A stretch of DNA of 64,000 nucleotides from Candidatus Aminicenantales bacterium (GCA_049515535.1 JBEKTZ010000001.1:80599-144598); one strand, 5' to 3'. Positions 14,371 through 38,557 are shown, numbered from the stretch's first letter. Notes: a model not told the origin generated them from the sequence alone. Made by a program: numbers and translations.

Positions 14371-14500
14371 GGTGGACGAAATGAATAAAATGTCGGATAA
14401 GCTCGTATCTAATTGAAAGATCATGAAATAGAATATGGCTATTTCGTCCACTCTATATATATCCAGGCGGGTGTCCAACCGTGGACGAAATGGACGAAAT
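14371..14500. repeat. iteron-like cluster: 4 copies of GGACGAAAT (two tandem, one inverted) just downstream of the primase-helicase gene
   Basis: GGTGGACGAAATG at 14371-14383. ATTTCGTCCAC (reverse complement) at 14442-14452. GTGGACGAAATGGACGAAAT at 14481-14500. Flanked by the AT-rich TCTATATATATATCC. Confidence 0.35.
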
Positions 14501-16345: not shown

Positions 16346-16631
16346 CTTCCTCGTCTTGAATAAATTTTTTTATCACCTCTTGATATTTCGCGATGACCGC
16401 ATTTTGAATCGTCTCTCCCACCGTGCGAGACAGGGGACGGAAACAGCACGTCCCCATCTTCATGGGATAGACGAGCCGGAAGCCGCCGGGCGTGGAAGGT
16501 GATGTATAAATGGCGACGGAGCCGACGAAATAGCGCCCGTCAATTAGAAAGGAAGCGAAGGCGACCAAGCCTTTCTGGGGAGGAACGGGGGCGATTTCTA
16601 TTTGGGCAATCTCGATTTCTTCTTTACACAT
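16314..16631 (-). CDS. hypothetical protein (overlaps primase start)
   Basis: 105-aa ORF with plausible composition. No motif recognised. Confidence 0.3.
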   Translation of the reverse strand: MCKEEIEIAQIEIAPVPPQKGLVAFASFLIDGRYFVGSVAIYTSPSTPGGFRLVYPMKMGTCCFRPLSRTVGETIQNAVIAKYQEVIKKFIQDEEDAYERSDRRS

Positions 16632-16732
16632 TTTCTAAACTCCGAGACTACCACAGGCTATTACAAGCTATTATTGGGATGTGGCCCCGAATTAATGACC
16701 TAATTCGGGGATAACAAAATTGAGATTATGGA

Positions 16733-17899: not shown

Positions 17900-18160
17900 C
17901 TTTATTACCTTTTTAAAAATTCTTTATATGAATTTTGATACTAAATATTTAAACAAGTCTTTAGGTCATTTACAAGCCAATGAAATAAATGAGAAAATAA
18001 ATTCTGATCTTCGTCATATTGAGGCGCTAATACGCTCAGCGATCATATCGACAGCGGGAAGCACTCCTAAGTAGCGAGTTGGCCAGGGGCCATTTCACTA
18101 ATTAGTTTTTATCGATCTTATCTCATATTTCTTGCCATCTTGAGCTTTTCGTTTAGCTTG

Positions 18161-18289
18161 TTAATCAGACCCACAGATTGCACACTTCCCCATGAAAATA
18201 TCCGTATCATCGTAATCCTCAAACGGCATCGGCAATCCGCAGGTGTGACAGAAAAGGACGATAATTTTCTGGCGTTTGATTCGCGCCAT
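18161..18289 (-). CDS. possible 42-aa zinc-ribbon micro-protein (MARIKRQKIIVLFCHTCGLPMPFEDYDDTDIFMGKCAICGSD)
   Basis: Not in the ORF track (below its length cutoff). Two CxxC pairs. ATG with a purine-rich upstream stretch. Lies directly downstream of the SNF2 gene. Competes with a plus-strand ORF at 18140..18424. Confidence 0.25.
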   Translation of the reverse strand: MARIKRQKIIVLFCHTCGLPMPFEDYDDTDIFMGKCAICGSD

Positions 18290-18466
18290 GAGAATAATTC
18301 CCGCTTTCCTTCGTCCTTCCTGATGAGGCCAGATTTTGCCTTCGCGGTGTCGTTTTCATCGGGAGGCTTGTCGATGAGCCAGGTTTCCCCGCCTCATTGC
18401 TGCACTCCAGTCTTTGAACAGTAGAGGGTTTATACTTTGAAGATAGAAACCCATGGTTCACCTCTC

Positions 18467-21400: not shown

Positions 21401-22111
21401 CAGCTTGAGGGCTTCGGGGAGCGTGACGGTGTGAACGTGCGGGTGGCTGTCTTTCCAGAGCGCATCGAACTCCTCCCGATACTCGCGGAAGCGTTCCTCG
21501 TCCTGCCATGAGGCGGAGACCTCCAGGCGCTCGTAGTTGGCGCGGAGACCCTGGGCGGACTCGTTGCCGCTGCCGTTGAAGACGATGGCCTTGCCGGAGG
21601 CGTCGTACACGAGACCGAACTTACCGTGAACAATGCCTTCGCCTTGCCGCATGACTCCCACGCGAACGGCCAGGAGGCCGGATTTGGTCATCCAGCCGAG
21701 CATGGCAAGGCGCTGCTTTTCCAGTAGATCGCGCGGCGTCTTGAAGCGTTTGGCGAGCGTCGCCTCCAGTGCGGACGTGTCGCCGGTCTCGATCAGGGCG
21801 CGGACATCGTCTTCGGCCAATTCCTCGTTAACCACGAGGCGGACCGCGGGACGCGGAGCCTTGGCGCCGAGAGCAATCAGGCGGCCGATCAGCCCGGCGA
21901 AGCCGCGGGCCGCGGCCGAAAGAACGCTACTTGAAAAATAGGCGCAGCAACGGTCATAGCGGATGGCCTCTGACAAGGCCGGGACGTAGAGTTTCTCGAC
22001 CAGTTCGTTATCCGGTCCCCGGATGAAGCGCCGCCAAGCGTGACGGGTCAAGTCGCCGGCAGCCAAGGATGACTTGGACGCCGAGACGATTTTGGACGGG
22101 GCAGTGCTCAT
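18467..22111 (-). CDS. PLD-family (HKD) nuclease domain fused to SNF2/DEAD-box superfamily-2 helicase
   Basis: N-terminal single HKD motif (HGKFGLVYD = HxK(x)4D). Helicase Walker A (DEVGMGKT). DEAH-like box (VLMDEAH). SAT motif (LLLSATPMQ). Helicase_C motifs (LICTDAASEGLNLQ, QRIGRIDRIGQ). The ATG overlaps the upstream methyltransferase stop (ATGA). Confidence 0.85.
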   Translation of the reverse strand: MSTAPSKIVSASKSSLAAGDLTRHAWRRFIRGPDNELVEKLYVPALSEAIRYDRCCAYFSSSVLSAAARGFAGLIGRLIALGAKAPRPAVRLVVNEELAEDDVRALIETGDTSALEATLAKRFKTPRDLLEKQRLAMLGWMTKSGLLAVRVGVMRQGEGIVHGKFGLVYDASGKAIVFNGSGNESAQGLRANYERLEVSASWQDEERFREYREEFDALWKDSHPHVHTVTLPEALKLKLVKLAPPEPPVTEPTDALARRKAAVLWRFIAEAPYLESGASACEATSPIDLWPHQRVVIEEASAAWPDGRMLCDEVGMGKTIEAIMILRRLMAGRGVARALLLLPAGLTAQWQDELREKGGLVVPRLQGLDTLVWPDGRTQHFPGLAAALEQDFLLMSRETARTESNANILLAARPWDLVLMDEAHAARRGKQEEGEFNSSTLLLNLLRLMQVRRKACGFLLLSATPMQTSPWEPWDLMSILGEGGAWLSDFEGVRGFYGLIHGLKTGTPSPEDAHRAAFLVTSDLRFPPPPAGFARIASPQDGERRLRFVPPGWKDDVIRWLRQGSPLARRMHRNTRKTLRDYHQRGLLPAAPPIRVVVDIPFDFQPPNGPERRVYNAVARYIEKRFEELEGEKPGKGFVMTIYRRRAASSPYALRCSLERRLAGLQRVMTQRASSGYIEETDVPAGLSDADIPEGLDTRAIPASLPTNPEDARREAAEVTILLDQLRALGATDTKRDRFFDRIRDLSAEGRPILVFSEYAETMEYLRDNLANHYAEQVASYSGGGGAFYRESKWIPVTKREITDALKQGTIRYLICTDAASEGLNLQTASALINYDLPWNPSKVEQRIGRIDRIGQSEREIRVYNFLLKDSIDEKVYGALRRRCGLFMHFVGTMQPVLARAQVMLNHPGQFSVDELERIAFEAERNFISAETYLDSEAVQIDQPTPSVTRADIVSALEILQPDYGLQISGHAAKGTVIVKGLENKPITFAFVDPALDVAPTARPLTALSPEVAQIADRLTRPGETLPLVVGSARVGAFRRSCAFWVSENAAEPLQNLAALRARVEEWDGTLPAPEKIAAAARHAQQEAERQVRELESRAAKIEQANLAAQRASAALRLNREVGRLLRCIDSAAADLAQLSEAQAARTGPLAERIRRAKESLGGRFGWTPQLAWELEQFLRTLTPNDQRSRLSGSSIDAAFADHRWEVGKLKPAQ

Positions 22112-25086: not shown

Positions 25087-25132
25087 TGCTGATTCAGCAT
25101 AGAATTCGCTGAATCAGCATAACTGCAACCGT

Positions 25133-26770
25133 TCATCCATGCTCCTTGAGAGTCCATTTGGCCCTGCGAGTAGCACCGACCTGTTTCACAACCCCTTCGT
25201 TTTCAAGTTGTTTCAGGAGATACCATACCTGGTTACGGTTCATGCCGGTGATTTCGCGGAACTGGGAATTGGTGAGTGGGCCCTGCCTCAGGGAGGCCAG
25301 AACCCGTCCGCGTGCGGCCTCGGATGCCATGCGGCGGTCAAGGTGGTAGGCAAGGTCCGTTTCGAGGATGTGATAGGCACGCAATGAAAGCCGGAAATAA
25401 CGCCCCCGGCCGGGGCCGCCAGCGGCTTCGAGCAGACCGCGACGGTTGGCCAAGGCGCCGAGGTGTTCGCGGGCATCTTCCAGGGGCCGCTGGCAGAACT
25501 CCGCCGCTTGACGGGCCGTGATCTCCCGGTGGCGGGTGAGGTAGTGAATGACCAACAGTTCGTCCACGCCGAGATCGTCGTACTCGCGCATCAGATCGAG
25601 GAACGGCTTGCGAGCATCCTGGCCTTTGACGGCGACTGAGACCGTCTGGCCGGTGGTCCAGTAGTACGGAGGCTCCTTGCCTTCGGCCAGCAAGTCCCAG
25701 TACACGCGCGGCACACCAAGGTTGGCGGCATTGGCAAGACGGATGCGGGCGAGCGCGGCAAACAGGGCCGGGTTTCTTGGCACAGAGGTGTGGTGCAGGA
25801 TGTTTTCCGGCGTAATGTCGCCGGGGAAACCGCCGGGGTTGGATATTTCGATGCGATCCGGATACAGTTTCACAACCAGAGAGCCGGGCGCGGAGAAATC
25901 GCGATGCGCCAAAGCGTTGACTAGTAGTTCGCGCATGGCCAGGACCGGATAGCGCGGGAACTCCGGGTGGACCAGATCGCCTTTGATGGTGAGGACCGGG
26001 TTGTTGGCGTTGATCAACTCGCGCAACCGGCGGAGCGCTACTGCGAGGCAGTCAAAGCCGGAGTCGGCCTGATCGTAGTCCGTATCCGAGAGCATGCGGA
26101 AGAACTGCCACTGGGAATGGGTTACGCGCCGGCGGATTTCCTCTGTTTGGCCGACGAGCAATAGACCAGCCATGATCAATTGGCCCTCATTGGTCAGCAC
26201 GCCAAGAGCCCGAAGCAGATCAGGGTCGGAAAGGCGGAGCAGGTCCGCCGTTGCGCCCACTTCACGCATGAGGGCCCGCAGGTCTTCCATGCCGGCAGGT
26301 CGAATCAGCGGTTCCCAAGGTCCGACCACTGGCGCCGCGGTGAACTCGATGCCAGCCTCGGCGCGGATCGCGTCGATTTCCGCGAGGGTCAGGCCGCGCA
26401 GATCCTCGCCCACGCGGATAAGGTAGTCGCCGCGGCGGGTGTGGAAGAGCTGTCCACGCGGACGGCCTGGGATGGTGACGACAACGACATTGCCCTCGGG
26501 CGTGGCAAGGTTCTCGACTTGGACGTGAATCTGGGCGGAATCGTACACGCTGCGGCGAATCTGCTGCATCTCATCCGGGGGCAACGGATCAACTGGTTGG
26601 ATGCGGCGCGGAGGGCGATTGGTGACGCCCATGACCAGGTGTCCGCCGCCGGAGTTACCGATACCAACGGCATAGCGCGCGATCTCGGTTCGCGGTTCAA
26701 GGGACGGCTTGAACTCCACGTTTTCCGTTTCGTTGCCAACCATGAGCGCCTGGAGTTCGGCAAACGTCAT
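25133..26770 (-). CDS. AlbA_2 (Schlafen-like) + HATPase_c_4 + C-terminal wHTH protein (RecG-C-terminal-like putative DNA-binding regulator)
   Basis: N-terminal ENVEFKPSL...GIGNSGGGHLVMGV is typical of the AlbA_2 divergent AAA domain. The central region is ATPase-like. The C-terminal end is a winged-helix (NQVWYLLKQLENEGVV). Start set at ATG 26770, which overlaps the upstream stop (ATGA). Confidence 0.65.
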   Translation of the reverse strand: MTFAELQALMVGNETENVEFKPSLEPRTEIARYAVGIGNSGGGHLVMGVTNRPPRRIQPVDPLPPDEMQQIRRSVYDSAQIHVQVENLATPEGNVVVVTIPGRPRGQLFHTRRGDYLIRVGEDLRGLTLAEIDAIRAEAGIEFTAAPVVGPWEPLIRPAGMEDLRALMREVGATADLLRLSDPDLLRALGVLTNEGQLIMAGLLLVGQTEEIRRRVTHSQWQFFRMLSDTDYDQADSGFDCLAVALRRLRELINANNPVLTIKGDLVHPEFPRYPVLAMRELLVNALAHRDFSAPGSLVVKLYPDRIEISNPGGFPGDITPENILHHTSVPRNPALFAALARIRLANAANLGVPRVYWDLLAEGKEPPYYWTTGQTVSVAVKGQDARKPFLDLMREYDDLGVDELLVIHYLTRHREITARQAAEFCQRPLEDAREHLGALANRRGLLEAAGGPGRGRYFRLSLRAYHILETDLAYHLDRRMASEAARGRVLASLRQGPLTNSQFREITGMNRNQVWYLLKQLENEGVVKQVGATRRAKWTLKEHG

Positions 26771-27189
26771 TTGACGGCCTCCACAAGGATGCGTAAAGCG
26801 CGGATAGCGCGGACGCGGCGGGTTCCGGACATGAGGCCGAGCCACCAGGCAGCCTCAGTGGCGTCAGCGCGCTTGAGGGAATCGGCAGCGTTGTGCATGG
26901 CGGTAGCGTTACGGAGTCCGCTTGTTACAAGCGCATAGCAGGCGACGCGCGCGCCGTAGTCCTGGTCCAGCGGGTAGAACGGGCCGGGCGTGAACTTGGT
27001 GACGTTGGCGCCACGGACAGAAGCGCGAAGCAGTGACGCGCCAGCGGAGAATGCCAGCGGGCCGATGGCGGCGACGCGGGCGAGGCGCTCCTCGCCGGTA
27101 GTCTTGAGGGAGCGGCGGCAGATGATGGCCGCGGCGCCGGCCTTGCGCTTGACGATGCGGAGAGCGAATGAAGCTTCGCGGACGGTCAT
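26767..27189 (-). CDS. small conserved hypothetical protein (positional equivalent of the DUF3780-like component of DUF499/DUF1156 cassettes)
   Basis: 140-aa ORF translationally coupled on both sides (ATGA overlaps at 27186-27189 and 26767-26770). No motif. The family assignment is an inference from synteny. Confidence 0.45.
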   Translation of the reverse strand: MTVREASFALRIVKRKAGAAAIICRRSLKTTGEERLARVAAIGPLAFSAGASLLRASVRGANVTKFTPGPFYPLDQDYGARVACYALVTSGLRNATAMHNAADSLKRADATEAAWWLGLMSGTRRVRAIRALRILVEAVK

Positions 27190-30140
27190 TTCTTACCCCC
27201 TCCCTTGGCGGCCGGTTTGCCGAAAGTCGCGGAGGGGGCTACGTCGTCGCCGGCCTTTTCGGCGGCGGCTTCGAGTTGGATCTTCATGTTCGGGCGGCCG
27301 GGGTCCTTGAACTTCAAGCGGAGTTGCGCGCCATAGGTCATGCCCTCCTGCATGGCGTTGAAGAGGGTGCGAGAAGACTCCAAGGCTTTGATGGGGCTGT
27401 TTTGTTTGACGCCGCGGACTTCGAGGCTGGCCGTGCCGCCGGACTTGAGTTCGCCGCTGACGGTGACTTCGAGTGTAAGTTCGTCGGCCCCGAGCGGTTG
27501 AGCGATGCCGGCGAGGGTTTCCGCAACAATGGGAGTGCCAGCGTTGAGTTCGAGGATGCGGAGGGGGCGCGTTTCAGCGTGCGCGAGGATATTGGTCCAG
27601 TTGGAGGCGATGACGGTGTCGGGCTCAGCGGGAGGCGGGAAAGGCTGCGCGCCTGGTTCCTTGACTTTGCCCGATTCCTTGGCCGCGTCCACTTTGAGCC
27701 AGTCCTTGGCGGCGGTGCTGTCGGCGCGGGTGATGAGTTCGTCTTCGCGGAGTCCGAGACTGGGTGTCTCGCCTTGGATGCGGCGGCGTTGACCGGGCGC
27801 GCCGGTCACGGCTCCGGTCTTGTCGTAGGCGGCGCCGTCGGCGGCGCGAACGACGGCTTTGCCCTGCTCGACGGACCGGAGCACGGTCAGCTTGACGACG
27901 GAGGCGTCCGGTACGAGGCGGAGGCCGGGGGCGGCAAGGAAGCGTTCGTGAACGTCGCTCTGGCGGTAAACGTCGGGCTGGTCGGGGATGGGTGTGGTGC
28001 TGCTGAGGACGGTCTTGAGGAAGCGGTCGGGATCGAGAGCCTGGCCGGCCTTGTAGAGCATCTCCTTATCCTCAAGGAAGGAGCGTAGGCAGCGCTGGCC
28101 CTGGGGCTTGCTGAGGATGTCTTCGTCAGAGACCTGGTACTTCTCCTCGAAGCGGCCAGCGACTCCGTCAGCACGGACGACGGTGTCGAAGGCACGGCAG
28201 GTCTGAAGTTTGAACTCGCGGGCGAGAGTGGGTTCGAGCCGAGTAAGTTGCTCGCGGACGAGGGCGCCGCTGTCGCCGTGGCGGGCATCCTTTTTGATCT
28301 GCTCGGCGGCGATCAAGCGCTTGGTGCGTTCGAGGGCGTTCTGGAACGCGTCCGGGTTTGGGGCGACGGCCACGATGGCGTTGCGGAAGCGGCGGGGCGT
28401 GGGGGCCGCGGGGTCAGTGTCGTCCTCGTACTGGCAGACGTTGACCGCTATGTCCACGGTGGCGCACAGGGCGAGTTGCAGCGAGGGGTGCTTCTGCACG
28501 TCGCGGGCCTTTTCGGGCCAACTGGCTAGGGAAAAGAGCGGGCCGGCGAAGTAGCTCTGGGCCTCGGAGAAGACGCGGTCGAGGGCTTCGTCCTGGTCCA
28601 CGGTGGCGGCGCGCTGTTCGATCTGCTTGATGACATTGGGCTCAAAGCGGAACTGCCAGCCTTTGTGACCGGCGAGCGGATATGTGTGCCAGCAAGCGCC
28701 GACGAGACGGTCAAGGGCTTGGGATGGCTCCTCGCCGGATTCCGAAGTGCGAAGTATCGCAAGGGTAAGGTCGGCGGGATCCATACCGCTATTCTCGTTG
28801 CGCGGGAGGCTTTCAAGAAGCAGTGCAGAAGCCACGCGGTAGTGGATGCCGTCGGGTTTGCGATCGTCGAGATCGAGGGCATGACCTTCGATGTCGGCGC
28901 TGACGGCGGCTTCGAATTGGTCCTTGCGTAGGCGTTGGAGAAGGTCTCCACGGATGTCTGGGCTTCCCCAGTTGATTTCGCCGGCGGTGACGAGTTCAAC
29001 CTCGCGCTGGCTGTTCCAGATCTCGCGGATGATGCGGGCGAATAGGCGAAGCACGCCGCGACTGCGTTGGAACTCGGGAAGTGGGCCGAGGCGTTCCTTG
29101 GCGGTGTCAATCAGGCGGGGATGGAAGGGGTAGCACTCCTGGATTCGGCGGGCGTAGTCGGCGCTGAGTACGGCGGTCGGGAGCAGGTCGGGGTGGGCCT
29201 CCCGGACGCGTTCGTAGAGTTGATGATAGATGGCAGATGCCTGGGCTGCGGCGGCGGGATCGATCTTGTCGAAGAGGCGGCGCGCGATAACGCGGGCGGC
29301 TTGTTTGCCGACGGGATCGAAGTCGGTCATCTTACGACCGAGGATGTCTTCCATCTTCATGGCCGAAGGTCCAAACGCCTTCGCCATCAGAGCAGCTTCA
29401 GATGCATAGGCTGCTTGCTGGCCAGGGTCGGTGATAACTAGGACTGCTTGTTTCCGTTTGGCAATGGCCGAAATCAGTTTCCCAAGGGAACTCATCAGGT
29501 TCCCTTGGCCGGTAGCGGAGAGGCAGGCCATGTAGATGACGAGTTCGTCGAGGAGAATGAGCAGAGGGCCTTCACCGAGCATTTTCGAGAGGAGTTTTTC
29601 ATCCGGCGAGGCTTCATGATGATCTGCTGGACTGAGTGCCTTAAGGGCGGACGGGCCGCCAAGTTGGAAGGCCAGTTCGCCCTGCAAGCTGTGCGTCTTG
29701 GTTGCATTATGCGTGGAGAAGATGGGAAGGCCGGCTTTTGCAGCATCTACCGCAACCACGGTCACGGAGTTCGGCCGGCCAGCCGCTGGAAGCAGTTCCG
29801 TTCCGAGCGTAAGTTTGTTGATGTTCTGCGCGAGGTGCCAGAGCGCCATAAGGGTGTGGGTCTTGCCGCCGCCGAAGCCGGTGCTGAGGCGGATCAACTG
29901 GCCGGTTTCCTTATTATCCGCGAGAGCCTTAAAGACGGCAGTGCAGACGGCCTTGAGGTCGGGCGTTGGTTCCGTATTGCGGAAAAAGGTCTCTGCATGG
30001 CCGTAGACCTTGGGTGCGCTTCCGTCAATGAGTTGGCCGAAGTCGGCGGCGAAGATGGCGTCGTCGAGTTCGCCTTCGAGGACTTCCTTGCGTGGCTTGC
30101 AAGCATTCAAAACGCTAAATCCTTTACTTTTCTTGCTCAT
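27186..30140 (-). CDS. DUF499-type AAA+ ATPase (BrxC/PglY-like)
   Basis: Walker A (STGFGGGKTHTLMAL). Walker B-like (LLILLDELVIY). About 980 aa. GGAG RBS 5 nt upstream of the ATG at 30138-30140. First gene of the operon. Confidence 0.8.
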   Translation of the reverse strand: MSKKSKGFSVLNACKPRKEVLEGELDDAIFAADFGQLIDGSAPKVYGHAETFFRNTEPTPDLKAVCTAVFKALADNKETGQLIRLSTGFGGGKTHTLMALWHLAQNINKLTLGTELLPAAGRPNSVTVVAVDAAKAGLPIFSTHNATKTHSLQGELAFQLGGPSALKALSPADHHEASPDEKLLSKMLGEGPLLILLDELVIYMACLSATGQGNLMSSLGKLISAIAKRKQAVLVITDPGQQAAYASEAALMAKAFGPSAMKMEDILGRKMTDFDPVGKQAARVIARRLFDKIDPAAAAQASAIYHQLYERVREAHPDLLPTAVLSADYARRIQECYPFHPRLIDTAKERLGPLPEFQRSRGVLRLFARIIREIWNSQREVELVTAGEINWGSPDIRGDLLQRLRKDQFEAAVSADIEGHALDLDDRKPDGIHYRVASALLLESLPRNENSGMDPADLTLAILRTSESGEEPSQALDRLVGACWHTYPLAGHKGWQFRFEPNVIKQIEQRAATVDQDEALDRVFSEAQSYFAGPLFSLASWPEKARDVQKHPSLQLALCATVDIAVNVCQYEDDTDPAAPTPRRFRNAIVAVAPNPDAFQNALERTKRLIAAEQIKKDARHGDSGALVREQLTRLEPTLAREFKLQTCRAFDTVVRADGVAGRFEEKYQVSDEDILSKPQGQRCLRSFLEDKEMLYKAGQALDPDRFLKTVLSSTTPIPDQPDVYRQSDVHERFLAAPGLRLVPDASVVKLTVLRSVEQGKAVVRAADGAAYDKTGAVTGAPGQRRRIQGETPSLGLREDELITRADSTAAKDWLKVDAAKESGKVKEPGAQPFPPPAEPDTVIASNWTNILAHAETRPLRILELNAGTPIVAETLAGIAQPLGADELTLEVTVSGELKSGGTASLEVRGVKQNSPIKALESSRTLFNAMQEGMTYGAQLRLKFKDPGRPNMKIQLEAAAEKAGDDVAPSATFGKPAAKGGGKK

Positions 30141-30557
30141 ACCTACTCCATTCGCAATTACATAATGGCTTTATTATCGCTTTTTTTAATTGGGTTACTT
30201 GAAGATAAGACATTCCCCTTTCGCATTGACTATAGCTTTCGGCATAGGTCGGAGTCAAGAAGTCAAGGATTCGCAATCATGCCCAGCTAGGTAAGGGGTC
30301 CGACTTCCTCTTGAAATCGTTTATAAGGGGTTTGTCCGTAGACGTCCGGATCATAAGCGAAATGAACCACTAGATTTCTCCCCAAAAATCCATGTGAAAA
30401 AATTGAGGACAAGATCGCTATTAATGGCTCAGCTTAATTAGTCCAGCTAAAAATGGGCTGACCCGGCTCACCATTGCAACAATAGCTGAAGAAATCTTTA
30501 TGGAGATGCCTCTGCATGGCTCCCAGGCGGGCGCATCGGCTCGGACCGTACCTTAGG

Positions 30558-30578
30558 GCTATGCTCATAGAGCATAGC
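30558..30578. promoter_or_regulatory. perfect 21-bp palindrome GCTATGCTC-ATA-GAGCATAGC followed by a (TA)n tract and a half-site repeat (TGAGCATAGCA at 30613-30623)
   Basis: Read directly from the sequence. Lies in an AT-rich 530-bp gap between the Mrr-like gene stop and the DUF499 operon start. Candidate operator or promoter region. Confidence 0.3.
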
Positions 30579-30673
30579 ATAGCTATATATATATTAGTAA
30601 TATATATAAATATGAGCATAGCAAAGCAGGATCCACGCCTTCCTGAGCTGCGGCTTGGTGCTGGGCGAGGAAT

Positions 30674-31564
30674 TTATTTTGTTTTATTGATTTTTGGAAT
30701 TTTTTTTGAGAAATATTTGGACAGAGAAGGCGAGAAATCTTCCACTATTGACAGCCACGGCCTGTCCGGCAATAGCGGGCCTACCATTCGATTCAGCTTT
30801 CCCCTGTCAAACAGCTTGATTATCTTTCCTCGCTCTTTCGCTCGGCCGACTGCTTCATAGGCGCGGTAAGTGAAATGGTCGGCTGTGGAGACCAAGATTC
30901 CGTTCAACGAATCCTTTAAATCCAACGCCCCAAGGAGATTGCGTATAGTTGCTACACCCTCAGAGGAATTGGGGCGTCCGCGCCTCTTGACCTGTATGAG
31001 CCACTGTTTCTCCCTTGAATCAATAAAAACTACATCAACGCCGCCATCGCTGGGCTTGCCGACATGAAACACTTCGCAATCTCCGTGATTTGCCTTAAAG
31101 ACAGAAGCCACCAGTTTTTCAAGTCTGGCAGGACTTATCGTGTGCCAAATATTTTTGTCTCTCCTAACAGCCTGAGCAAGCTCATCATCCGGCCCTTCGG
31201 GCAATTTCCCTTCAAAGTCTCTTAGCTTGGAAATATAAGCATCCGAAATTAATTCCGATGCGGTGTTGTCTTTGCCCTCATGCCAGTACCACTGCCAATA
31301 TGCGCAATAATCACAAGACCATAGAGTGGAATCAACTAAGAAAACGAATCGTTTTGATTCAGGGTCATTTTGTTCTTTATAAAAATCAGCCGAACGCAGG
31401 GAAGTGCCGCAGAATGGGCAATTTTTTATTTCCGGGAACTGATCGTAAACCCACTCATAAATTAATTCGGCTTGCTCACCCTCAATACATTCTCCATTAA
31501 TTTCACATGTGAAGTCTGCCGCGACAATATGGTCATGTGGTATCTTGGAAGCTTTGGACATCAC
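30674..31564 (-). CDS. Mrr-like (Mrr_cat) restriction endonuclease-domain protein with N-terminal Cys-rich (zinc-ribbon-like) domain
   Basis: C-terminal PD-(D/E)xK signature DGGVDVVFID...QWLIQVKRR matches the Mrr catalytic pattern (GIDG...IQ.KR). N-terminal CPFCG...CDYC Cys cluster. The exact first codon is ambiguous. Confidence 0.7.
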   Translation of the reverse strand: MMSKASKIPHDHIVAADFTCEINGECIEGEQAELIYEWVYDQFPEIKNCPFCGTSLRSADFYKEQNDPESKRFVFLVDSTLWSCDYCAYWQWYWHEGKDNTASELISDAYISKLRDFEGKLPEGPDDELAQAVRRDKNIWHTISPARLEKLVASVFKANHGDCEVFHVGKPSDGGVDVVFIDSREKQWLIQVKRRGRPNSSEGVATIRNLLGALDLKDSLNGILVSTADHFTYRAYEAVGRAKERGKIIKLFDRGKLNRMVGPLLPDRPWLSIVEDFSPSLSKYFSKKIPKINKTK

Positions 31565-31794
31565 ATTAAATCCGTTTCTTAACGGACCTAATAATATTAC
31601 AGCCTATTTCTTTCTGCTTCAATCCGGCAAGAAAAAACGGAATCCGTAGCTTAAAAAATCAGCACGCGAGTCCGAACCCGCCTGACGACGAACATCCTCC
31701 GAATTTGCCGCCCAACACGTTGGGGTTCAGCGGCGGGCGCAGCCCATCCCGTAGAACCCCATGTTGGGCCACGTTGCGGTCCTGATTGATGTTC

Positions 31795-33192
31795 TCATGC
31801 GTGGTGCTTCTGGCGCCAGCTAGCAAACATAGCCCGTCGCGCCTTCCATGACGGCGGAGATGGTTCGAGACGTTGAATCCGGACGTTGTCCCAGACGAGG
31901 AGCCGCCTCCCGTCTCGCAACACGGCCCGTACATCGCCATCCTGAGAGACTACAAAGCCGACGCTGCCCGGATATGCCCAGCAATATCGCATCATTGAGC
32001 GATGACGGGTGCCGAGACTGTCAATGGCGAAACTACGCAGACTTGCTGGCTGCGCCGTAGCAGTGGTCGCGAGATGAACTCGGGGCGGCTCCTCTCTCGT
32101 CGTTATCTCCACGCCAAATGCTTGGATGGCTAGATTTCCTGTGGCCAACACCAGCCCGTCAATCCTGGATAGTCCGGCAACGAAGGTGGCGCAACCTGCC
32201 TCAGCACTGATGGCGTCCGACTCGTCGGTTTTGGCTATAGACTCCTTCAAGTAAAGATCGGCTGGCACGGTGTCCAAGCCTGGGTCGAGGTAATCTTCGA
32301 TAATATCTTGGCCGGTTCGATAGGCGATAAGTCGACTTGCAGATCGCAAGGCCAGCACGGTGGCAAGTTTCCTATACTGGAGGACATACTTCGGCCGCAA
32401 TCCGGCCCAGTTAAGGCGCGGCAGCAACAGCAACGCCCCGCCATGTCCCTGTCGGCGGATGGCCAAGAGAAGGCGACGCAAGCCATCCGTCCAGGTTTCA
32501 GCCGCCGTTTTCAGGTCGAATGGACCCGGTCGGACTGCCTCGCGCCGCAGAATGTTGCGTACACTCCGCATATGGTGCCTTACGAATGGTCGAAAACACC
32601 GATTTACGGGACCGTGGCTGAAGACATCTATCTGGCCCGGCGCAATTGAATCCTGTCGAAGTGTAGCTATGAGATATTTTTCGTCGTACACTGTCAGCGC
32701 GCCTTGGCCCGTGATCTGCAGCTGGAAGACGCCGGGGCGCCCAAAGGACACTTCTCCCTCGAAGTGTATGTTGCTTTCGAAATGGAGCTCTTGGTCGAAC
32801 ATGCCCCAGGCAAATGGTCGATGCGCTGCGTCGGCGAAGACAGCCAACGCCGCTGAATATCGCGGCGCGGCCTGCGCAAGCTTAGCCAGGGAGGCCGCTG
32901 TGAGGGCAACGCGGTTCTCGAATGGGAATAGCGACCCTCGTTGCGGCCTCACAAGAGGCGGATCTGGATCAGGGTGCTTCGGGTCCATAAACACGAGCGT
33001 ACAGGTGCATGGCCTGCTCTCGTCCCGTCGCATGCTGGCGAAGTAAGCGACCTCGAAGAGCCTGGTAAGGCTCAATAGAGGCGGTGGCCTACGGCCTACC
33101 TGGTGAAGATGTCTTAGCAGCCGAATGGCTAGATCGCGAGGATAGCTACTCGCCATGTAGGTTACTCTATGCGCCGGCCCAACAATGATCAT
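31795..33192 (-). CDS. protein with C-terminal diadenylate-cyclase-fold (DAC/DisA_N-like) domain; N-terminal 300 aa unknown
   Basis: C-terminus aligns to the CdaA/DisA DAC core: DGLVLATGNLAIQAFG (DGA region, as DGL), LGTRHRS (RHR motif), FVVSQDGDVRAV (VVSEETG region). May start at the second Met (MASSY, 33156). Confidence 0.6.
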   Translation of the reverse strand: MIIVGPAHRVTYMASSYPRDLAIRLLRHLHQVGRRPPPLLSLTRLFEVAYFASMRRDESRPCTCTLVFMDPKHPDPDPPLVRPQRGSLFPFENRVALTAASLAKLAQAAPRYSAALAVFADAAHRPFAWGMFDQELHFESNIHFEGEVSFGRPGVFQLQITGQGALTVYDEKYLIATLRQDSIAPGQIDVFSHGPVNRCFRPFVRHHMRSVRNILRREAVRPGPFDLKTAAETWTDGLRRLLLAIRRQGHGGALLLLPRLNWAGLRPKYVLQYRKLATVLALRSASRLIAYRTGQDIIEDYLDPGLDTVPADLYLKESIAKTDESDAISAEAGCATFVAGLSRIDGLVLATGNLAIQAFGVEITTREEPPRVHLATTATAQPASLRSFAIDSLGTRHRSMMRYCWAYPGSVGFVVSQDGDVRAVLRDGRRLLVWDNVRIQRLEPSPPSWKARRAMFASWRQKHHA

Positions 33193-33224
33193 ACAGTCTG
33201 TATAATTCTTGAAATACAGACTGT
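33193..33224. promoter_or_regulatory. hyphenated palindrome ACAGTCTGTAT-N10-ATACAGACTGT abutting the annotated start codon of the DAC-fold gene
   Basis: 11-bp perfect inverted arms read directly from the sequence. An AT-rich promoter-like region lies upstream (33225-33500). Confidence 0.35.
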
Positions 33225-33898
33225 CCCTTTCCGTATAAGAAGTCTCTTCCTTTCCTTATCTTTTCGTCCATCGCCTTTCATTCCGACTAGTTACCTCCGT
33301 CTTTCACCACAGAGCTTCCCGGACGGAATAATCGCCTTTTTTTTCGCGACGAAGACAACTTTCTGTCTTGTCTGTAAATATCCCCCGGTTAACATATATG
33401 TAGATTATCACTCTGATTCGAAAGATGTCAATTTTCTATAATTTAGGAGGGGCGGAAGACTTCGAATGAATGCTCTAAAACATGGGTAAGATTTTTAAAT
33501 AGCTTGGAAAAATTTCTTTTGGTCAGCGCAGGACGAACCGGCTAGTGTTGTTCCTCGCACTCGGCATGTTTGCTGCGGAGGAACCCGGCGGGTTTTCCAC
33601 AATACTTGCAGTTGCCCAAAGTGACCTCCTGAAAGTGCTAACAATAAGATCAGCCGCGAGTGTAACGAGTCGGCTACATTGCCTTGTTGGGGACTATGCG
33701 TTTTCGAGTAAGTGACCCGCCCCCACTTTGTGTACCACCTGTGAAGTGAAAATTCTAGGTTCTGGACCTGCCCCCTGATTAGGTCCATTTTTTAGGTTAG
33801 AAAAATATTTTATGGAGGGAGCCTCACCCCAAAACTGATCCAGCCAAAAATGAAGTTTTTTGGCTTTGTTTACTCCTTGCGAATTTATCAACGAACTC

Positions 33899-34642
33899 CT
33901 ATGGCGTCAAGTCTCCGAGCGCGCTATGCGGTCGAAACCTATTGTAGTCCTCTCGCAACTTCTCTATTTTTTCTCGGGCGTCCTCCATCGACAAGAACCA
34001 ATTGACGTTCAGGCATTCATCCCTGAACGTTCCGTTGAACGATTCGATCATCGCGTTATCCATAGGTTTACCGGGTCTCGAAAAATCTATCGTGACTCCG
34101 CTTTCATAGGCCCACTTGTCTAAAACCCTTGAAATAAATTCGCTCCCGTTGTCGCATTGGATGCGATCCGGAGCGCCCCGCTCCTTCACCAGCCGCTCGA
34201 CGACAGCCGCCACTTCCGCCCCCGTGAGGCTCTGGCCGGCTTCGATCGCCAGGCACTCGCGACTAAAATTATCGACTATCGTTAAGGCCCGGAATCGATG
34301 GCCGTTGAAGAGGCTGTCGACCACGAAATCCATGCTCCAGCAGACGTTGGGACGGCCGACCTCCGGCCGCGCCATTCGTCGGCTTCCCGTGACATGGCGC
34401 CGAGGACGCTTTCGGCGTAAGTTGAGTCCCTCCTGGCAGTAGATCCGATAAGTCCGCTTGTGATTGACGCGCCAGCCCTCGCGCCGAAGCAGGACATGTA
34501 TCCGACGATATCCATACCGAATCCGTGTCTCAGCGATCTCCCGGATTCGCATCCGCAGAGCTCCGTCGTCCTTGTGGTGCGAACGGTACCGATGGGACGA
34601 ACGCCAGATCCTGATCACCTCGCATGCCCGCCGCTCGCTCAC
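33899..34642 (-). pseudogene. IS3-family transposase OrfB (rve integrase core) truncated by an in-frame TAG
   Basis: DDE core (WSMDFV...DNGSEF...). Translation ends at ...HSALGDLTP*. Reading through the TAG at 33899-33901 gives EFVDKFARSKQ..., restoring the conserved LG(Y)LTPxEF tail. This points to a nonsense mutation. Confidence 0.65.
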
Positions 34643-34692
34643 CCAATACGCTTCCTCAAGATGCTCGACACGTTCCCGTCTCTGGGCTGGCT

Positions 34693-34965
34693 TCAGAATT
34701 TTTTTGAGAGCACATCCTGGAGCATCTGCTTATCCAGGCTCAGGTCAGCGACCATGCGCTTGAGACGCCGGTTCTCCTCCTCCAGTTGCCTCAAGCGACG
34801 CAGCTCCGATACTCCGAGCCCTCCGTACTTCTTCTTCCAGCGATAGAACGTCTGCTCCGAAATCGCCATCTTCCGGCAAACCTCGGGCACCCGGGTCCCC
34901 GTCTCGGCTTGCCGCAGAGCGAAGGCGATCTGCTCTTCCGTGTACTTCGATGTCTTCATCGACAA
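34693..34965 (-). CDS. IS3-family transposase OrfA (HTH)
   Basis: MSMKTSKYTEEQIAFALRQAETGTRVPEVCRKMAISEQTFYRWKKKYGG is the canonical IS3/IS911 OrfA. Leucine zipper follows. Confidence 0.85.
   Translation of the reverse strand: MSMKTSKYTEEQIAFALRQAETGTRVPEVCRKMAISEQTFYRWKKKYGGLGVSELRRLRQLEEENRRLKRMVADLSLDKQMLQDVLSKKF
34699..34705 (-). other. programmed -1 ribosomal frameshift slippery heptamer (A AAA AAA) at the orfA/orfB junction
   Basis: OrfA ends ...CTC TCA AAA AAA TTC TGA. The A7 run sits at the expected IS3 position. Confidence 0.5.
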
Positions 34966-35087
34966 AACCTCCTGCTGAGAGATTTTGCCATAAAACTCAC
35001 ATTATCGGTGGACCATTTTTAAGGGATGAGGTCCATAGGCTTAGAAGCTTTGAGTATTATTGCATGATCTATAAAAATTAGATTTTT

Positions 35088-36350
35088 TTACTTGGTCATC
35101 TTTGTAATCATAATGGGAATCCCAAATCGAAATGGACATTTTCCTATATATGATTCTGGATTTAAATTTATATCTGGCAAACCATTATCCTTGAACCAAT
35201 ATTCCCATTCCTTTCTGCCCAATTCCAAAACTGTATCTAATTCATTTTCCCAATTTTCATTTAATTTATAAATTTCTGATAATCCAATTAAATGACTAAT
35301 CTTTTTGCCAACATCCGAATAATCTTCTTTATCTGTAATTCCCAATTCAGATATTTCGCTAATGCATGAACTGAAAGATTCCTTATTTTTGGTATTTTTA
35401 TAATCATTTAATGAACTCAATATTACGAATCCTAGTCCAGGGATTGGCTTTTTTCCGGAATTAAGACTCTCCTCTTCAGCTGATCTTGTAGCAATTCCTG
35501 TATAGTTGTCATGAATTAATTTATAAATTTTTGTTAAAGGAATATCTGGGCTATTCAGCCATCCAAATTCGTCTGTAACAATGATGACTCGTTTAAAATC
35601 CGCTCTTCCTAAAATTAGAAGTAATAGGAAAAATCCTTCAACTATTGGGATTTCTTCAAAAAATTTTAAAATATTAGCAGAAAGTTCCTTTCTATATTTT
35701 TTATAAGATAAGAACAATGCAAAAGATATCGCTAATTTATCACCATAAGAAAGGCCCGTTTCTTTTAATTTATCATAAAGAGCTTTTCTTTCAAAGAAAA
35801 TCCTAATATTTCGAGCATAGTTTCTGAATGGCATTAATAAAATGCCTGCAATTCCAAAAGATGCAGCTGTTGTAATCGCGCTAAGAATAAGCAAGGAACT
35901 TGCGATGGCATCAAAAGCGACCGAAATTCTGCTTTCGCTTTTCTGTTTCTTTTCGTTATATCTATTATCTTCAATACCGATTCGTGTGTGGATTTCTCTA
36001 AGAAGTTCTCCTGGCCTAATATTACGGCCTTCGCTGCTCGTAAGAAGCACTTTGCCAATATTCATTTGGCCTTCCTGGTTAATATAAAGGAATAAGGTAT
36101 TTTCCAGCCCGATCGCCAGCTCCTTAATATAATATGCACAGGTTGATTTTCCGGCTCCATATTCTCCTTTTATAAGCAAACTTCTGAATTTCTTTGAACT
36201 TGTTTCACTCCATAATTTAGATAAGATGTTCGCAAATTTTTCGAAAGGCTTTCCTCCTGCGAAACTCGATATATATTCTTGGGGAACCCCCTTGTTTTTT
36301 AAAGAAGTAATTATTGCATCCGCAATTTTCGCAGAAATGGATTTACTCAT
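35088..36350 (-). CDS. KAP-family P-loop NTPase (membrane-inserted P-loop)
   Basis: Walker A GEYGAGKST. Hydrophobic transmembrane insert between Walker A and Walker B (ISVAFDAIASSLLILSAITTAASFGIAGILLMPF). Walker B RVIIVTDEFGW. AT-rich gene. Confidence 0.7.
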   Translation of the reverse strand: MSKSISAKIADAIITSLKNKGVPQEYISSFAGGKPFEKFANILSKLWSETSSKKFRSLLIKGEYGAGKSTCAYYIKELAIGLENTLFLYINQEGQMNIGKVLLTSSEGRNIRPGELLREIHTRIGIEDNRYNEKKQKSESRISVAFDAIASSLLILSAITTAASFGIAGILLMPFRNYARNIRIFFERKALYDKLKETGLSYGDKLAISFALFLSYKKYRKELSANILKFFEEIPIVEGFFLLLLILGRADFKRVIIVTDEFGWLNSPDIPLTKIYKLIHDNYTGIATRSAEEESLNSGKKPIPGLGFVILSSLNDYKNTKNKESFSSCISEISELGITDKEDYSDVGKKISHLIGLSEIYKLNENWENELDTVLELGRKEWEYWFKDNGLPDINLNPESYIGKCPFRFGIPIMITKMTK

Positions 36351-36355
36351 TTTAT

Positions 36356-36634
36356 TTAGGTGAAGAAGCCCTTTTTATTCTTTTTTGAAAGTTCTTCCGT
36401 GAGATCGTCAATCTTAGATGAAAGGCTATAAAGTGCTTCTGATATTCTTTGATTTTGATAAGACGATTTCTCAATAAAGAGAAAATATTGATCAATTTTT
36501 CTTAATAATTTCATTAGGTAAAATAGGAAAAAAATAGAAACTGTTGTTTGTACAACGATAAATACTAATAATACTAAGTTTAGAGTTGACATATTTTCCC
36601 TCGCAATTAGCTCTAATATATTGGAAAAAATCAA
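36356..36634 (-). CDS. small membrane protein (one TM helix), upstream partner of the KAP NTPase
   Basis: 92-aa ORF with a hydrophobic helix (LNLVLLVFIVVQTTVSIFFLFYL). Separated from the KAP gene by 5 bp. AT-rich. Confidence 0.45.
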   Translation of the reverse strand: MIFSNILELIARENMSTLNLVLLVFIVVQTTVSIFFLFYLMKLLRKIDQYFLFIEKSSYQNQRISEALYSLSSKIDDLTEELSKKNKKGFFT

Positions 36635-36734
36635 ACCCTATTTTAGCTTCTTCCCCTTTCAAAATAAGTATACTAAATTCCTTTTTCTGCTTCAATGAAA
36701 ATTATGCTGTTTGGGATGATCGCTCTTTCTAACC

Positions 36735-37019
36735 TTGCTGCGGATCGGTTCTGAAGATCTTGCATACGATCCCTACGTGCTCTCGGGCATCAACGACCTC
36801 CGGATCGATGCTGCCGACAACGTCTATGCCCTGGATCGTGAGGAATTCATGATCAAGGTCTTCTCGCCGACGGGCAAGTACATTAAAACCTATAAGGAAT
36901 TTGATTTTTCTGCGGCCTGGCGAATTCCCGCTCCGACCGATGAATCTCCCAGTCTTCCGATCCCCAAGCTGACCCGCTTCCAAAATTCTAGGAGACCAAA
37001 GACAGGGCTTTTTAGCTAA
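36735..37019 (+). pseudogene. NHL-repeat beta-propeller gene fragment (remnant)
   Basis: NHL-repeat-like segment GINDLRIDAADNVYALDREEFMIKVFSPTGKYI. No start or signal context. Only about 90 aa. An alternative minus-strand ORF 36729..37127 exists. Confidence 0.25.
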
Positions 37020-37513
37020 ATTCGTGACAAAATCTGATTGAAAATGATGGCTAGGGTTATCGTCTTGGAATGAAACAGAAAAGAGAAAAAGGGGTTGGTA
37101 GGGTACCCTTACCCCCCCTCTCGCCAAAAGCCCGTCCTAAATGCGCTACGACGTCCTGGGTGAGCGTCACGACCATTCCTTATGCGTTCTCAGAAGGGTC
37201 AGAACATAATAATCGATGCGCTGGAGGGCAAGCGCCGGCATTCGCCCTGATCTCCGGCCAGATATCAATCAGAGTTTTTATATGAAAAATTTCCCGAAAA
37301 TTCACAGCAAAATCTCGAGTATGGTCATCTGAACAGCCCGGCAGAATTCCCATAGGGGGGTGCCCCCCCGGCCCTCGCTTCTTTCTGCCTGCCTGGCCAA
37401 GCTTGAAACGCCCAATTTTCAACGCTCACGGACTCAATTGGGGAGGTCGCTCCCTTGCGCAATAGAAGGACGCCGGTGATCAGCCGGCGCAATAGTAGAG
37501 CGAGGCAAACGCC

Positions 37514-38020
37514 ATGAGGAATCAACAAACGGAGCGCGGGATCATGAAGCTCCCCTTCACCAAGAAGCCCGTGAAAATGCCCGTTTTCGAGCGGCCGGAT
37601 TACCATGACGGCGCGATGTTATGCAGCTCCGGCGCTGTCTTCGAGGCGTTCAAGAGCTACGCGAAGGCGGATCGGGAATTTTTTGTCGTCGTGTATCTGG
37701 ACCCGAAAAACCGGGCGATTGAAGTTATTGAGGCAAACGAGGGCACGATTGATAGCGCGGCCGTGTATCCGCGCGAGATCATCCGGGGCGCGCTCATCCT
37801 GGGGGCGACGGCGATCGTCTGCTTTCACAATCACCCGAGCGGCGACCCGGAACCTAGCCTATGCGACAAGGAAATTACTAGAGAAATCTTGTTCGCCTGC
37901 AAAATCATGGGAATCCGGTTTTTAGATCATGTCGTCATCGGCAACAATTGCTATTACAGCTTCGCGGACAAGGGCCTCATTGAAGACTACGATCTTCGTT
38001 TTCTTTCGTTGAACCGATAA
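37514..38020 (+). CDS. radC: RadC-like JAB/MPN (JAMM) domain protein
   Basis: JAMM motif HNHPSGDPEPSLCD. Characteristic RadC length and context (mobile-element cargo). Confidence 0.85.
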   Translation: MRNQQTERGIMKLPFTKKPVKMPVFERPDYHDGAMLCSSGAVFEAFKSYAKADREFFVVVYLDPKNRAIEVIEANEGTIDSAAVYPREIIRGALILGATAIVCFHNHPSGDPEPSLCDKEITREILFACKIMGIRFLDHVVIGNNCYYSFADKGLIEDYDLRFLSLNR

Positions 38021-38032
38021 GGAGGCTATGTC

Positions 38033-38338
38033 ATGCCGCAATTCAAGGCGACAGAGGACGGCGGCTTAGAGATCGACGGCCGGAAGGTCCTTAAGGCCTG
38101 GGAATCGTTCTCGGGCTGGTATTTGTTCGGCTTCGAGATCGCCGAGACGCGGACGCCGGGGAAGGACGGCGGCGGGTCGATGATCGACGGCCGCGAGGTC
38201 CCGGACGTGATATGGTTCGGGCTCGTCCAGGGATTCGAGGAAGAGCTAGGCTATTTCAGCGAAGCCGAATTGAAAGCAGCCGCTCCGCGCGTCTGGCAGA
38301 TCAAGCCCCGGGACCTGCCCTATGCCGGGCGAAAATAG
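38033..38338 (+). CDS. hypothetical protein (co-oriented with radC, 12-bp spacing)
   Basis: 101-aa ORF with good composition. No motif. Confidence 0.45.
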   Translation: MPQFKATEDGGLEIDGRKVLKAWESFSGWYLFGFEIAETRTPGKDGGGSMIDGREVPDVIWFGLVQGFEEELGYFSEAELKAAAPRVWQIKPRDLPYAGRK

Positions 38339-38470
38339 GACATAAATTTGAAAAGCTGAGGCAATCCCGTGTCACACCGGCGTCACAGAATTTGCCTAAA
38401 ATCGCTTAATCTTGGCTATTGGTGCTTAAAAGACAAAGCAAGAAAAATGAAGAAATATCAGGGGAAAATA

Positions 38471-38533
38471 GAGAAACAAGGCTGGTAGCGCTACGGGGAT
38501 TCGAACCCCGGTTTGATGGCTGAGAACCAACCG
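38471..38533. repeat. attR-like direct repeat (overlaps the 3' half of the intact tRNA-Glu)
   Basis: Matches 12181-12243 with 1 mismatch. Confidence 0.75.
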
Positions 38534-38557
38534 TCCTAACCCCTAGACGATAGCGCC
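38483..38557 (-). tRNA. tRNA-Glu (anticodon CUC), 75 nt with encoded CCA
   Basis: Manually folded cloverleaf. Acceptor GGCGCTA/TAGCGCT (G1-U72). D-arm GTCT-AGGGGTTA-GGAC. Anticodon arm GTTGG-TTCTCAG-CCATC (one U-U mismatch). 4-nt variable loop, typical of tRNA-Glu. T-arm CGGGG-TTCGAAT-CCCCG. Discriminator A plus CCA. Confidence 0.7.

Follow-up and report, generated by a model that had tools for sequence, protein, structure and literature searches.

A divergent DACNV-family diadenylate-cyclase-like protein beside a probably independent Mrr-like nuclease in a genomic island of a Candidatus Aminicenantales bacterium

The region from 30,674 to 33,224 in a 64,000-nucleotide stretch of DNA from a Candidatus Aminicenantales bacterium (GCA_049515535.1 JBEKTZ010000001.1:80599-144598; the whole stretch is called the window, and positions are counted from its first letter) holds two genes on the minus strand, here named gene A and gene B. 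The product of gene A presents the fold of a diadenylate cyclase (DAC) and is a new, divergent member of the DACNV family, which is catalogued and experimentally uncharacterized, while gene B belongs to a known nuclease family. We regard it as probable that gene A codes for a DACNV cyclase gated by a degenerate DAC domain of its own, that it travels as orphan cargo of a genomic island, and that gene B is independent of it.

Fold, Motifs, and Family of Gene A

31795..33192, minus strand: gene A, DACNV-family diadenylate-cyclase-like protein (longest open reading frame [ORF] of 465 aa, by translation)
32623..33156, minus strand: N-terminal domain of gene A, a degenerate second DAC-like fold without catalytic motifs (residues ~13 to 190, with DACNV at 37 to 132)
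32452..32613, minus strand: two-helix linker joining both DAC-like domains (residues ~194 to 247; helices 194 to 217 and 224 to 247 by DSSP on the structural model)
31858..32451, minus strand: C-terminal DAC domain of the catalytic type (residues ~248 to 445; HGGA 250 to 253, DGL 345 to 347, GTRHRS 394 to 399, SQDG 416 to 419)

The 465-aa ORF that the original prediction had reported is present, and the DG, RHR, and VVSQDGD-type motifs claimed for its product are all in place, namely, D345-G346-L347 (32152-32160) within RIDGLVLA, G394-R398 (31999-32013) within SLGTRHRSMM, and S416-G419 (31936-31947) within GFVVSQDGDVRA. The true start is probably the ATG at 33156 (M13), which gives a protein of 453 aa, since the N termini of the homologs begin to align at residue 13 (MASSYPRDLA) and residues 1 to 13 are disordered in the AlphaFold2 (AF2) model, where their predicted local distance difference test score (pLDDT) is below 50.

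The AF2 model, built on an alignment of 56 sequences, is confident (pLDDT of 92; predicted template modeling score [pTM] of 0.89) and displays the alpha/beta fold of the DACs, to which all of its best 50 Foldseek matches belong; a helical hairpin of about 65 aa (residues 275 to 341) is inserted inside the C-terminal DAC domain of the model. Furthermore, the alignment with hhalign of the DAC domain of the family against three DisA DAC domains (one sequence validated against the DisA of the PDB at an E value of 3.6e-47, and two others copied from that output) gave an E value of 1.3e-4 and paired SLSRVDGLVL with ELSKMDGAIVL of DisA and GTRHRSM with GTRHRTA. The motif-by-motif correspondence between the C terminus of gene A and the DAC core, first proposed from the sequence alone, is thus recovered at the profile level, with DGL set on DGA and GTRHR on GTRHR.

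In the 56 homologs, H250, G251, G252, D345, G346, G394, R396, H397, S399, S416, Q417, D418, and G419 are invariant, and the same holds for the equivalent positions in a second, independent set of 59 sequences, so that the residues of the DG and RHR motifs that had been singled out for a conservation check (D345, G346, R396, and H397) do not vary in either set. At least 90% of the sequences keep T395 and R398, and the third residue of the DGA motif is Leu throughout the family. As far as sequences can tell, this strict residue conservation argues for a live enzyme, and not a dead sensor, in gene A.

The N-terminal part of gene A had been described as matching nothing recognizable; in fact, residues 37 to 132 match the Pfam domain PF21751, "probable sensor domain DACNV," at 55.1 bits, against a cutoff of 27. 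The alignments with hhalign of the N-terminal domain against the C-terminal domain of the same protein (E value of 0.33) and against DisA (E value of 0.66) gave no sequence signal of a duplication. DACNV is present in all 56 aligned relatives, and gene A shares with the family the position of DACNV on the N-terminal side of the DAC domain and the length of about 430 to 470 aa, aligning over its full length at 33 to 44% identity.

Among 5.8 billion proteins searched, 206 relatives of about 436 aa were found, with 33 to 43% identity; nearly all carry DACNV, and NCBI or JGI give some of them the name "sensor domain DACNV-containing protein." An exhaustive HMMER scan of 1.84 billion cluster representatives returned 1,795 family members at an E value of 0.001 or lower, the closest of which is 43 to 44% identical to gene A. 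In a domain-fusion search, the longer members comprised one TPR fusion and some unknown extensions. The family had no match in the phage collection and two matches only among plasmids, and no model for gene A is present in PADLOC or NCBIfam.

Gene B and Its Relation to Gene A

30674..31564, minus strand: gene B, stand-alone restriction-endonuclease-like protein (296 aa; annotated start, ATG at 31561)
31565..31794, minus strand: A-B intergenic spacer (230 nt; AT rich at the end proximal to gene B and strongly structured)

Both features attributed to gene B in the original prediction were confirmed. Its residues 142 to 260 (30785-31141), with the motif LIQVKRRG, match the Pfam domain PF04471 (Mrr_cat) at an E value of 8.5e-16 (58.6 bits, cutoff of 21), as expected for an Mrr-type PD-(D/E)xK nuclease with IQVKRR, and its Cys-rich N terminus holds a CxxC...CxxC zinc ribbon (C49 to C87; 31304-31420). 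Across 41 homologs, the four cysteines of the ribbon (C49, C52, C84, and C87) and the Mrr catalytic signature (D173, D177, Q191, and K193) are invariant. The family comprises 269 matches of about 300 aa named "restriction endonuclease," one of which, from a Candidatus Aminicenantales metagenome-assembled genome (MAG), is identical to the window protein; its profile detected no relative of solved structure by sequence. In Pfam, PADLOC, and NCBIfam, no SAVED, CARF, STING, cNMP, or other recognized nucleotide-sensing domain was found in gene B, and the neighbors of the family, varying from locus to locus, form no recurrent cluster.

The co-occurrence of the two families was searched from both sides. 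For the best 80 genome loci of the A family, with a flank of 8 kb on each side, tblastn found a gene B homolog in none (0/80); conversely, 94 A-family queries found a gene A homolog in none of 80 metagenome loci of the B family (6 kb on each side, 479 kb in total). The only other A-B pair seen lies on a 2.8-kb contig with identical proteins and sequence, probably of the same organism. The two genes, described as immediately adjacent, are in fact separated by the 230-nt spacer, where the GC content falls to 0.39 to 0.47 and the RNA fold reaches a z score of -3.47 with respect to shuffles; the scans for canonical terminators and promoters gave no call there. The GC content at third codon positions (GC3) is 0.62 in gene A and 0.46 in gene B, with 0.74 in the adjacent Hma genes and 0.71 to 0.79 in the core genes. 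Since the two families did not co-occur in any of these 160 loci, the reading of the pair as a cyclase and Mrr nuclease module fails by the refuting condition originally set for it, and the lack of a nucleotide sensor in gene B, the difference in GC3, and the variable neighbors of its family also speak against it. In annotation and in tests, genes A and B are best treated separately.

In the spacer, at 31565-31600 on the minus strand, a hairpin of 13 bp (loop of 4 nt) ends at the gene B start codon; it could mask the ribosome-binding region of gene B.

Genomic Contexts of the Relatives of Gene A

The A family is linked to nucleotide-signal immunity, but not through nuclease B. In particular, in one tight clade, the DACNV gene directly follows a gene with Cap4_nuclease and SAVED domains in all eight complete loci examined (L002, L004, L010, L083, L084, L166, L167, and L168), while a ninth, incomplete locus of the clade (L003) holds a Cap4 fragment only. 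In most loci, the two genes share the strand and are separated by 29 to 128 bp. Their hosts are antiphage signaling systems based on cyclic oligonucleotides (CBASS), either of type II (ThiF E1 and SMODS) or of type III (SMODS, HORMA, Cap8, and AAA). Since the Cap4 proteins of these loci are 70 to 84% identical, compared to about 25% for their CD-NTases, the data suggest that Cap4 and DACNV travel as a unit. In L167, the two are separated by an inserted HEPN gene.

A neighbor-joining tree, computed with no support values, places the window protein outside the Cap4/CBASS clade, in a deep group whose contexts are a sugar ABC operon, toxin-antitoxin and mobile genes, RtcB with Ro-like genes, and, for P0073, a member of the same clade as the window protein, an IS3 element with a type III CBASS behind it, 2 kb away. 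Among the immediate neighbors of the family as a whole (n = 122), 14 are histidine kinases, mostly in Sphingobacteriaceae, and the remaining flanks hold transporters, hydrolases, and RNA-repair enzymes.

Individual loci of the family present noteworthy arrangements. In L169, an IS3 element lies between a related DACNV gene and a type III CBASS operon. A Syntrophaceae MAG (L035:2138-9326) presents, in a row on the same strand, genes for CD-NTase, an unknown product, KAP NTPase, and TIR protein, then a pair of small ORFs and finally DACNV; this last belongs to a further clade of the family, for which the row is another context of the defense type. Genes for PNKP-type kinase-phosphatase-ligases occur upstream of DACNV in the Hymenobacter loci L030, L033, L043, and L073, and RtcB with a TROVE/Ro-like gene stands by DACNV in L172:45-4554. 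As for the PADLOC matches to SAVED_TIR and ThsB in the A-family flanks, jackhmmer returned only the relatives of the seeds themselves.

The Genomic Island

12171..38557, strand not applicable: integrative genomic island of 26.3 kb that holds genes A and B (ARAGORN, direct repeat, Pfam)
18467..30140, minus strand: Hma-type defense system adjoining gene B (Pfam, PADLOC)
27186-30140, minus strand: HmaC/DUF499 (PADLOC, E value of 8e-66)
22108-25086, minus strand: HmaB/DUF1156 methylase (PADLOC, E value of 1.2e-81)
18467-22111, minus strand: PLD-SNF2 helicase (PADLOC PLD_Helicase, E value of 6e-70)
25133-26845: Schlafen (SLFN)/AlbA_2 gene with HATPase_c_4 and a winged helix-turn-helix, inserted between HmaB and HmaC (Pfam)
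33899..34959, minus strand: IS3-family transposase genes directly upstream of gene A (Pfam rve, rve_3, HTH_21)

The defense-island setting assumed from the start is correct, given the Hma system that PADLOC calls (HmaA, HmaB, and HmaC) at 18467-30140 and the integration of the island at a tRNA-Glu gene. The ends of the island are marked by tRNA-Glu(CTC) (38483-38557) and by a duplicate of its 3' part (12171-12243), which form a direct repeat of 73 nt with 93% identity; Rfam calls the tRNA copy at 38486-38557 only. By Pfam, a tyrosine integrase (12266-13714) adjoins the tRNA duplicate and is followed by a primase-helicase (14501-16345), and core-like genes resume at 39396. The cargo comprises the primase-helicase, the Hma system, gene B, gene A, the IS3 element, an AT-rich ATPase cassette, and RadC. 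With a GC3 that spans 0.27 to 0.74 between cassettes, the island is a compositional mosaic of independently acquired cassettes.

The IS3 element extends roughly from 33790 to 35010, with orfA (34693-34959), whose end is a slippery A7 run, and orfB (33899-34642). The very AT-rich cassette at 35088-37127 (GC content of about 0.30; GC3 of 0.27) encodes a 420-aa ATPase with a weakly BrxC/BrxD-like N terminus and two small ORFs without a family match. Between the IS3 element and gene A, an ORF fragment, LGNCKYCGKPAGFLRSKHAECEEQH*, occurs at 33543-33620 on the minus strand; it resembles the remnant of a zinc-ribbon N terminus, possibly of a gene truncated by the insertion of the element.

Proposed Mechanism

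Gene A is built of three parts, in which a degenerate N-terminal DACNV domain is joined by the two-helix linker to a C-terminal DAC domain where the residues for the binding of metal and ATP are kept. As to catalytic activity, its product, and the regulatory role of the N-terminal domain, we infer that two C-terminal DAC domains would meet in a head-to-head pair and join two ATP molecules into cyclic di-AMP (c-di-AMP) or a close relative, the need for face-to-face pairing being taken by analogy with DisA and CdaA, and that the N-terminal pseudo-DAC, as an element of regulation or of ligand sensing, would gate the pairing, either by occupying the pairing face or by binding a nucleotide cue. Gene A would be an orphan cargo gene of the 26.3-kb island at tRNA-Glu, and gene B, with its zinc ribbon and Mrr-type PD-(D/E)xK domain, would be a separate, self-sufficient restriction-like endonuclease acquired independently, so that their adjacency would reflect the packing of genes in defense islands and not a cyclase-effector module.

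In the CBASS clade, the DACNV product could serve the SAVED nuclease as a second input or as a decoy, an idea made plausible by the TIR-SAVED effector that can read host c-di-AMP (bioRxiv 10.1101/2025.06.19.660554) and by the existence of decoy-type DAC systems. A more speculative reading, which we hold to be unlikely as a whole, joins these elements: the DACNV proteins would be a third class of immune diadenylate cyclases, with a tandem of pseudo-DAC and DAC whose dead N-terminal domain would gate the live one upon sensing a nucleotide or a cue from the phage; the fixed Cap4(SAVED)-DACNV cassette in CBASS may feed a c-di-AMP-type input or decoy to the SAVED nuclease; and the window copy may be free-standing, its product being read by an unrecognized receptor, conceivably the zinc ribbon of the adjacent Mrr-like nuclease.

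Alternative Explanations

Some results weigh against the interpretation of gene A as a DACNV cyclase independent of gene B. Since the Pfam DAC family (PF02457) does not match the gene A protein even at an E value of 1, and no DAC was found among the PDB sequences with the single sequence, the full-length profile, or the DAC-domain profile, the homology of gene A to the DACs rests on the predicted fold and on short motifs; Pfam DAC weakly matches 46 of its 56 relatives, with a best E value of 0.0013. Moreover, gene A features Leu as the third DGA residue and Q-D in place of the acidic pair of SEE(T)G. With regard to gene B, the two genes lie on the same strand with no clear terminator between them, and their pair recurs on a second contig, though with identical sequence. 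The CBASS-clade relatives of gene A adjoin the PD-(D/E)xK nuclease Cap4, so that a tie to some nuclease is "not absurd."

Among the alternatives, the one that survives best, improbable as we judge it, sees in gene A a stranded CBASS accessory, whose CD-NTase and SAVED partners were lost or lie elsewhere, possibly by way of IS3, and which acts in trans or is functionless. This history would agree with the place of one clade directly after Cap4-SAVED in CBASS operons of type II or III, and so would the surroundings of P0073, the CD-NTase, KAP NTPase, and TIR genes upstream in L035, and the IS3 element directly upstream of gene A. However, tblastn found no match to SMODS, Cap4, HORMA, Cap8, Trip13-like, ThiF, or CapP in the window, and Pfam found no CD-NTase, SAVED, or HORMA gene among the ORFs surrounding gene A; the window protein stands outside the CBASS clade of the neighbor-joining tree, most family members reside in nondefense contexts (histidine kinases, ABC transporters, and hydrolases), and the intact gene A ORF, which keeps every conserved residue, argues against decay.

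We give little credence to the possibility that gene A is a catalytically inactive DAC-fold receptor or sensor of nucleotides rather than a synthase. In DisA and CdaA, metal and phosphate are bound by the D of DGA, by RHR, and by Ser with the acidic residue; these residues are invariant over about 60 sequences of the family, and because this invariance persists at an overall identity of 30 to 43%, it has the character of a signature of retained catalysis; in addition, the related multidomain DS-2C proteins are active cyclases. What would suit an inactive sensor is the replacement of A by L in DGA and of E-E by Q-D, the large helical insertion within the DAC domain, the lack of a significant Pfam DAC match for the gene A protein, and the N-terminal domain itself, which shows that catalysis can be lost from DAC folds in this family.

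A genuine two-gene module, in which gene A would make a c-di-AMP-like signal upon infection and gene B would be activated by it, appears very improbable. In addition to the shared strand without a canonical terminator, the pair kept on the second contig, and the CBASS relatives adjoining a PD-(D/E)xK effector, it could invoke the location of both genes in a defense island; however, the search from both sides gave no co-occurrence in 160 loci, the second contig is the identical sequence, the B-family genes are solitary with variable neighbors, gene B has no known cyclic-nucleotide sensor, nor do its 296 aa, of which the zinc ribbon takes up 49 to 87 and Mrr_cat 142 to 260, leave space for one, and the two genes differ by 16 points of GC3 across a structured spacer of 230 nt.

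Finally, that gene A is an ordinary housekeeping or stress c-di-AMP synthase (osmotic or cell-wall signaling) merely located in the island is hardly probable at all, since, against the chromosomal location of many members (Pedobacter, Mucilaginibacter, and Acidobacteria) by histidine kinases (14/122), transporters, and hydrolases and the absence of the family from phages and near absence from plasmids, it has to be set that gene A is flanked by an IS3 element and by restriction-type genes within an island bounded by an integrase, that its GC3 of 0.62 is below that of the core genes (0.71 to 0.79), and that a closest relative only 43 to 44% identical among 1.8 billion representatives points to a sporadic, horizontally moving distribution.

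Palindromes near Genes A and B

33193..33224, strand not applicable: perfect inverted repeat ACAGTCTGTAT-N10-ATACAGACTGT (11-nt arms at 33193-33203 and 33214-33224; 10-nt loop)

The palindrome noticed at the start codon of gene A does have perfect 11-nt arms; its position at the start codon probably does not stand, since the ATG next to it is that of the longest ORF, the repeat being 37 to 68 nt upstream of the probable start at 33156. It is a candidate operator or 5' untranslated region hairpin. The hairpin is present in both the minimum free energy and the centroid folds, and the 91-nt region folds no better than shuffles (z score of -0.75). An intrinsic terminator was considered for this repeat and rejected, as no T run follows it. 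In the window, about 6 distinct perfect inverted repeats of such size occur, compared to 1.2 expected in shuffles, and the repeat is probably real, not unique. Rfam found no riboswitch, including those for c-di-AMP, or other RNA family near genes A and B.

Just past the gene B stop, a nested AT-rich palindrome was observed at 30558-30622. Between its 12-nt perfect arms, GCTATGCTCATA and TATGAGCATAGC, lies a second perfect palindrome, of 11 nt and rich in TATATA. The element may mark the boundary of a cassette, or act as a recombination site or a terminator.

Comparison with Known Systems

According to PMC12901056 and PMC13640721, through which we refer to it, the catalogue of Galperin (2023, J Bacteriol 205:e00023-23) arranges the DAC architectures in 22 families. 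Of the major classes of nucleotide-signal synthases, the DACs were the last for which a tie to phage defense was made, and only by two August 2026 preprints (one of them bioRxiv 10.64898/2026.08.10.743927), in which DACs of defense islands, DS-2C/CdaG and the minimal PanS, are active cyclases; the preprints cover only these two kinds, and neither mentions DACNV. A DAC-based defense component is less unusual than the original prediction held, as DACs in CBASS variants and in Panoptoo/PanDA were described between 2023 and 2026. The locus adds DACNV, another catalogued DAC architecture, to mobile defense islands, and its relatives show that the DACNV "sensor" is a degenerate DAC fold and that one clade is hard-wired behind Cap4-SAVED in two CBASS types. 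If the DACNV proteins are active cyclases, they would be candidates for a second signal or a decoy input into SAVED effectors, which fits the report of a TIR-SAVED effector that reads host c-di-AMP (bioRxiv 10.1101/2025.06.19.660554). The remaining interest thus lies mostly outside the window, in the Cap4-DACNV cassette and in the pseudo-DAC "sensor."

Gene A resembles CdaG/DS-2C (DACNG-DACNH-DAC) in being a multidomain cytoplasmic DAC with the catalytic domain at the C terminus, in the preceding DACN domain, itself a catalytically dead DAC-like fold (DACNV here and, there, DACNH, a remote fold of this kind [PMC13640721]), and in the ties of its members to CBASS operons and defense islands. 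Different from CdaG/DS-2C, gene A has DACNV and no Pfam match to DACNG or DACNH, measures 453 to 465 aa compared to about 550 to 575 aa, and misses Pfam DAC, whereas the DAC of DS-2C is described as a canonical DisA_N; c-di-AMP synthesis in vitro belongs to DS-2C/CdaG (Ragucci et al., bioRxiv 10.64898/2026.08.10.743927), gene A being a predicted cyclase only, and no CBASS genes are near the window copy.

With PanS of Panoptoo/PanDA, gene A shares a DAC fold with conserved DGA/RHR-type residues and the occurrence in antiphage defense islands. PanS, however, consists of one domain of about 150 aa, makes the decoy cUA or c-di-AMP constitutively, and is always paired with an S2TM-beta receptor-effector; gene A is three times larger, carries a pseudo-DAC N-terminal domain, and has an Mrr-like nuclease and IS3 as neighbors with no adjacent membrane effector, so that the Panoptoo/PanDA arrangement of a DAC of about 150 aa with a 2TM-beta effector is not found at its locus.

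Compared to DisA and CdaA/DacA/CdaM (PDB 3c1y, 7y0d, 2fb5, 6hvl, 7dg0, and 8ofj), gene A preserves the order of the motifs, i.e., the G-A-L strand, DG(A), the G-T-R-H-R helix, and the strand with Ser and the acidic residue. It differs in lacking the HhH DNA-binding domain of DisA and the transmembrane helices of CdaA, in having DGL for DGA and SQD for SEE/SER, in the helical hairpin of about 65 aa between its first strands and the DG motif, and in a similarity below the detection limit of HMM-sequence searches.

As for the type II and III CBASS with Cap4, the adjacency of an A-family clade to Cap4-SAVED shows that the logic of a cyclase next to a nuclease effector exists in the family. In those systems, however, the signaling cyclase is a CD-NTase and the nuclease carries the SAVED sensor; the window has neither, and thus lacks the CD-NTase and the cyclic-nucleotide-sensing effector that define a CBASS locus. 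Moreover, gene B is downstream of gene A, whereas Cap4 is upstream of DACNV, and gene B comes from the unrelated Mrr_cat family.

Gene B is instead closest to the solitary Mrr-type (type IV-like) endonucleases, with which it shares the Mrr_cat domain and its D...D...QxK residues, the lack of an adjacent methyltransferase of its own, and the variable neighborhoods. Different from E. coli Mrr, in which the N-terminal DNA-recognition module is a winged helix, the corresponding module of gene B is predicted to be the CxxC...CxxC zinc ribbon.

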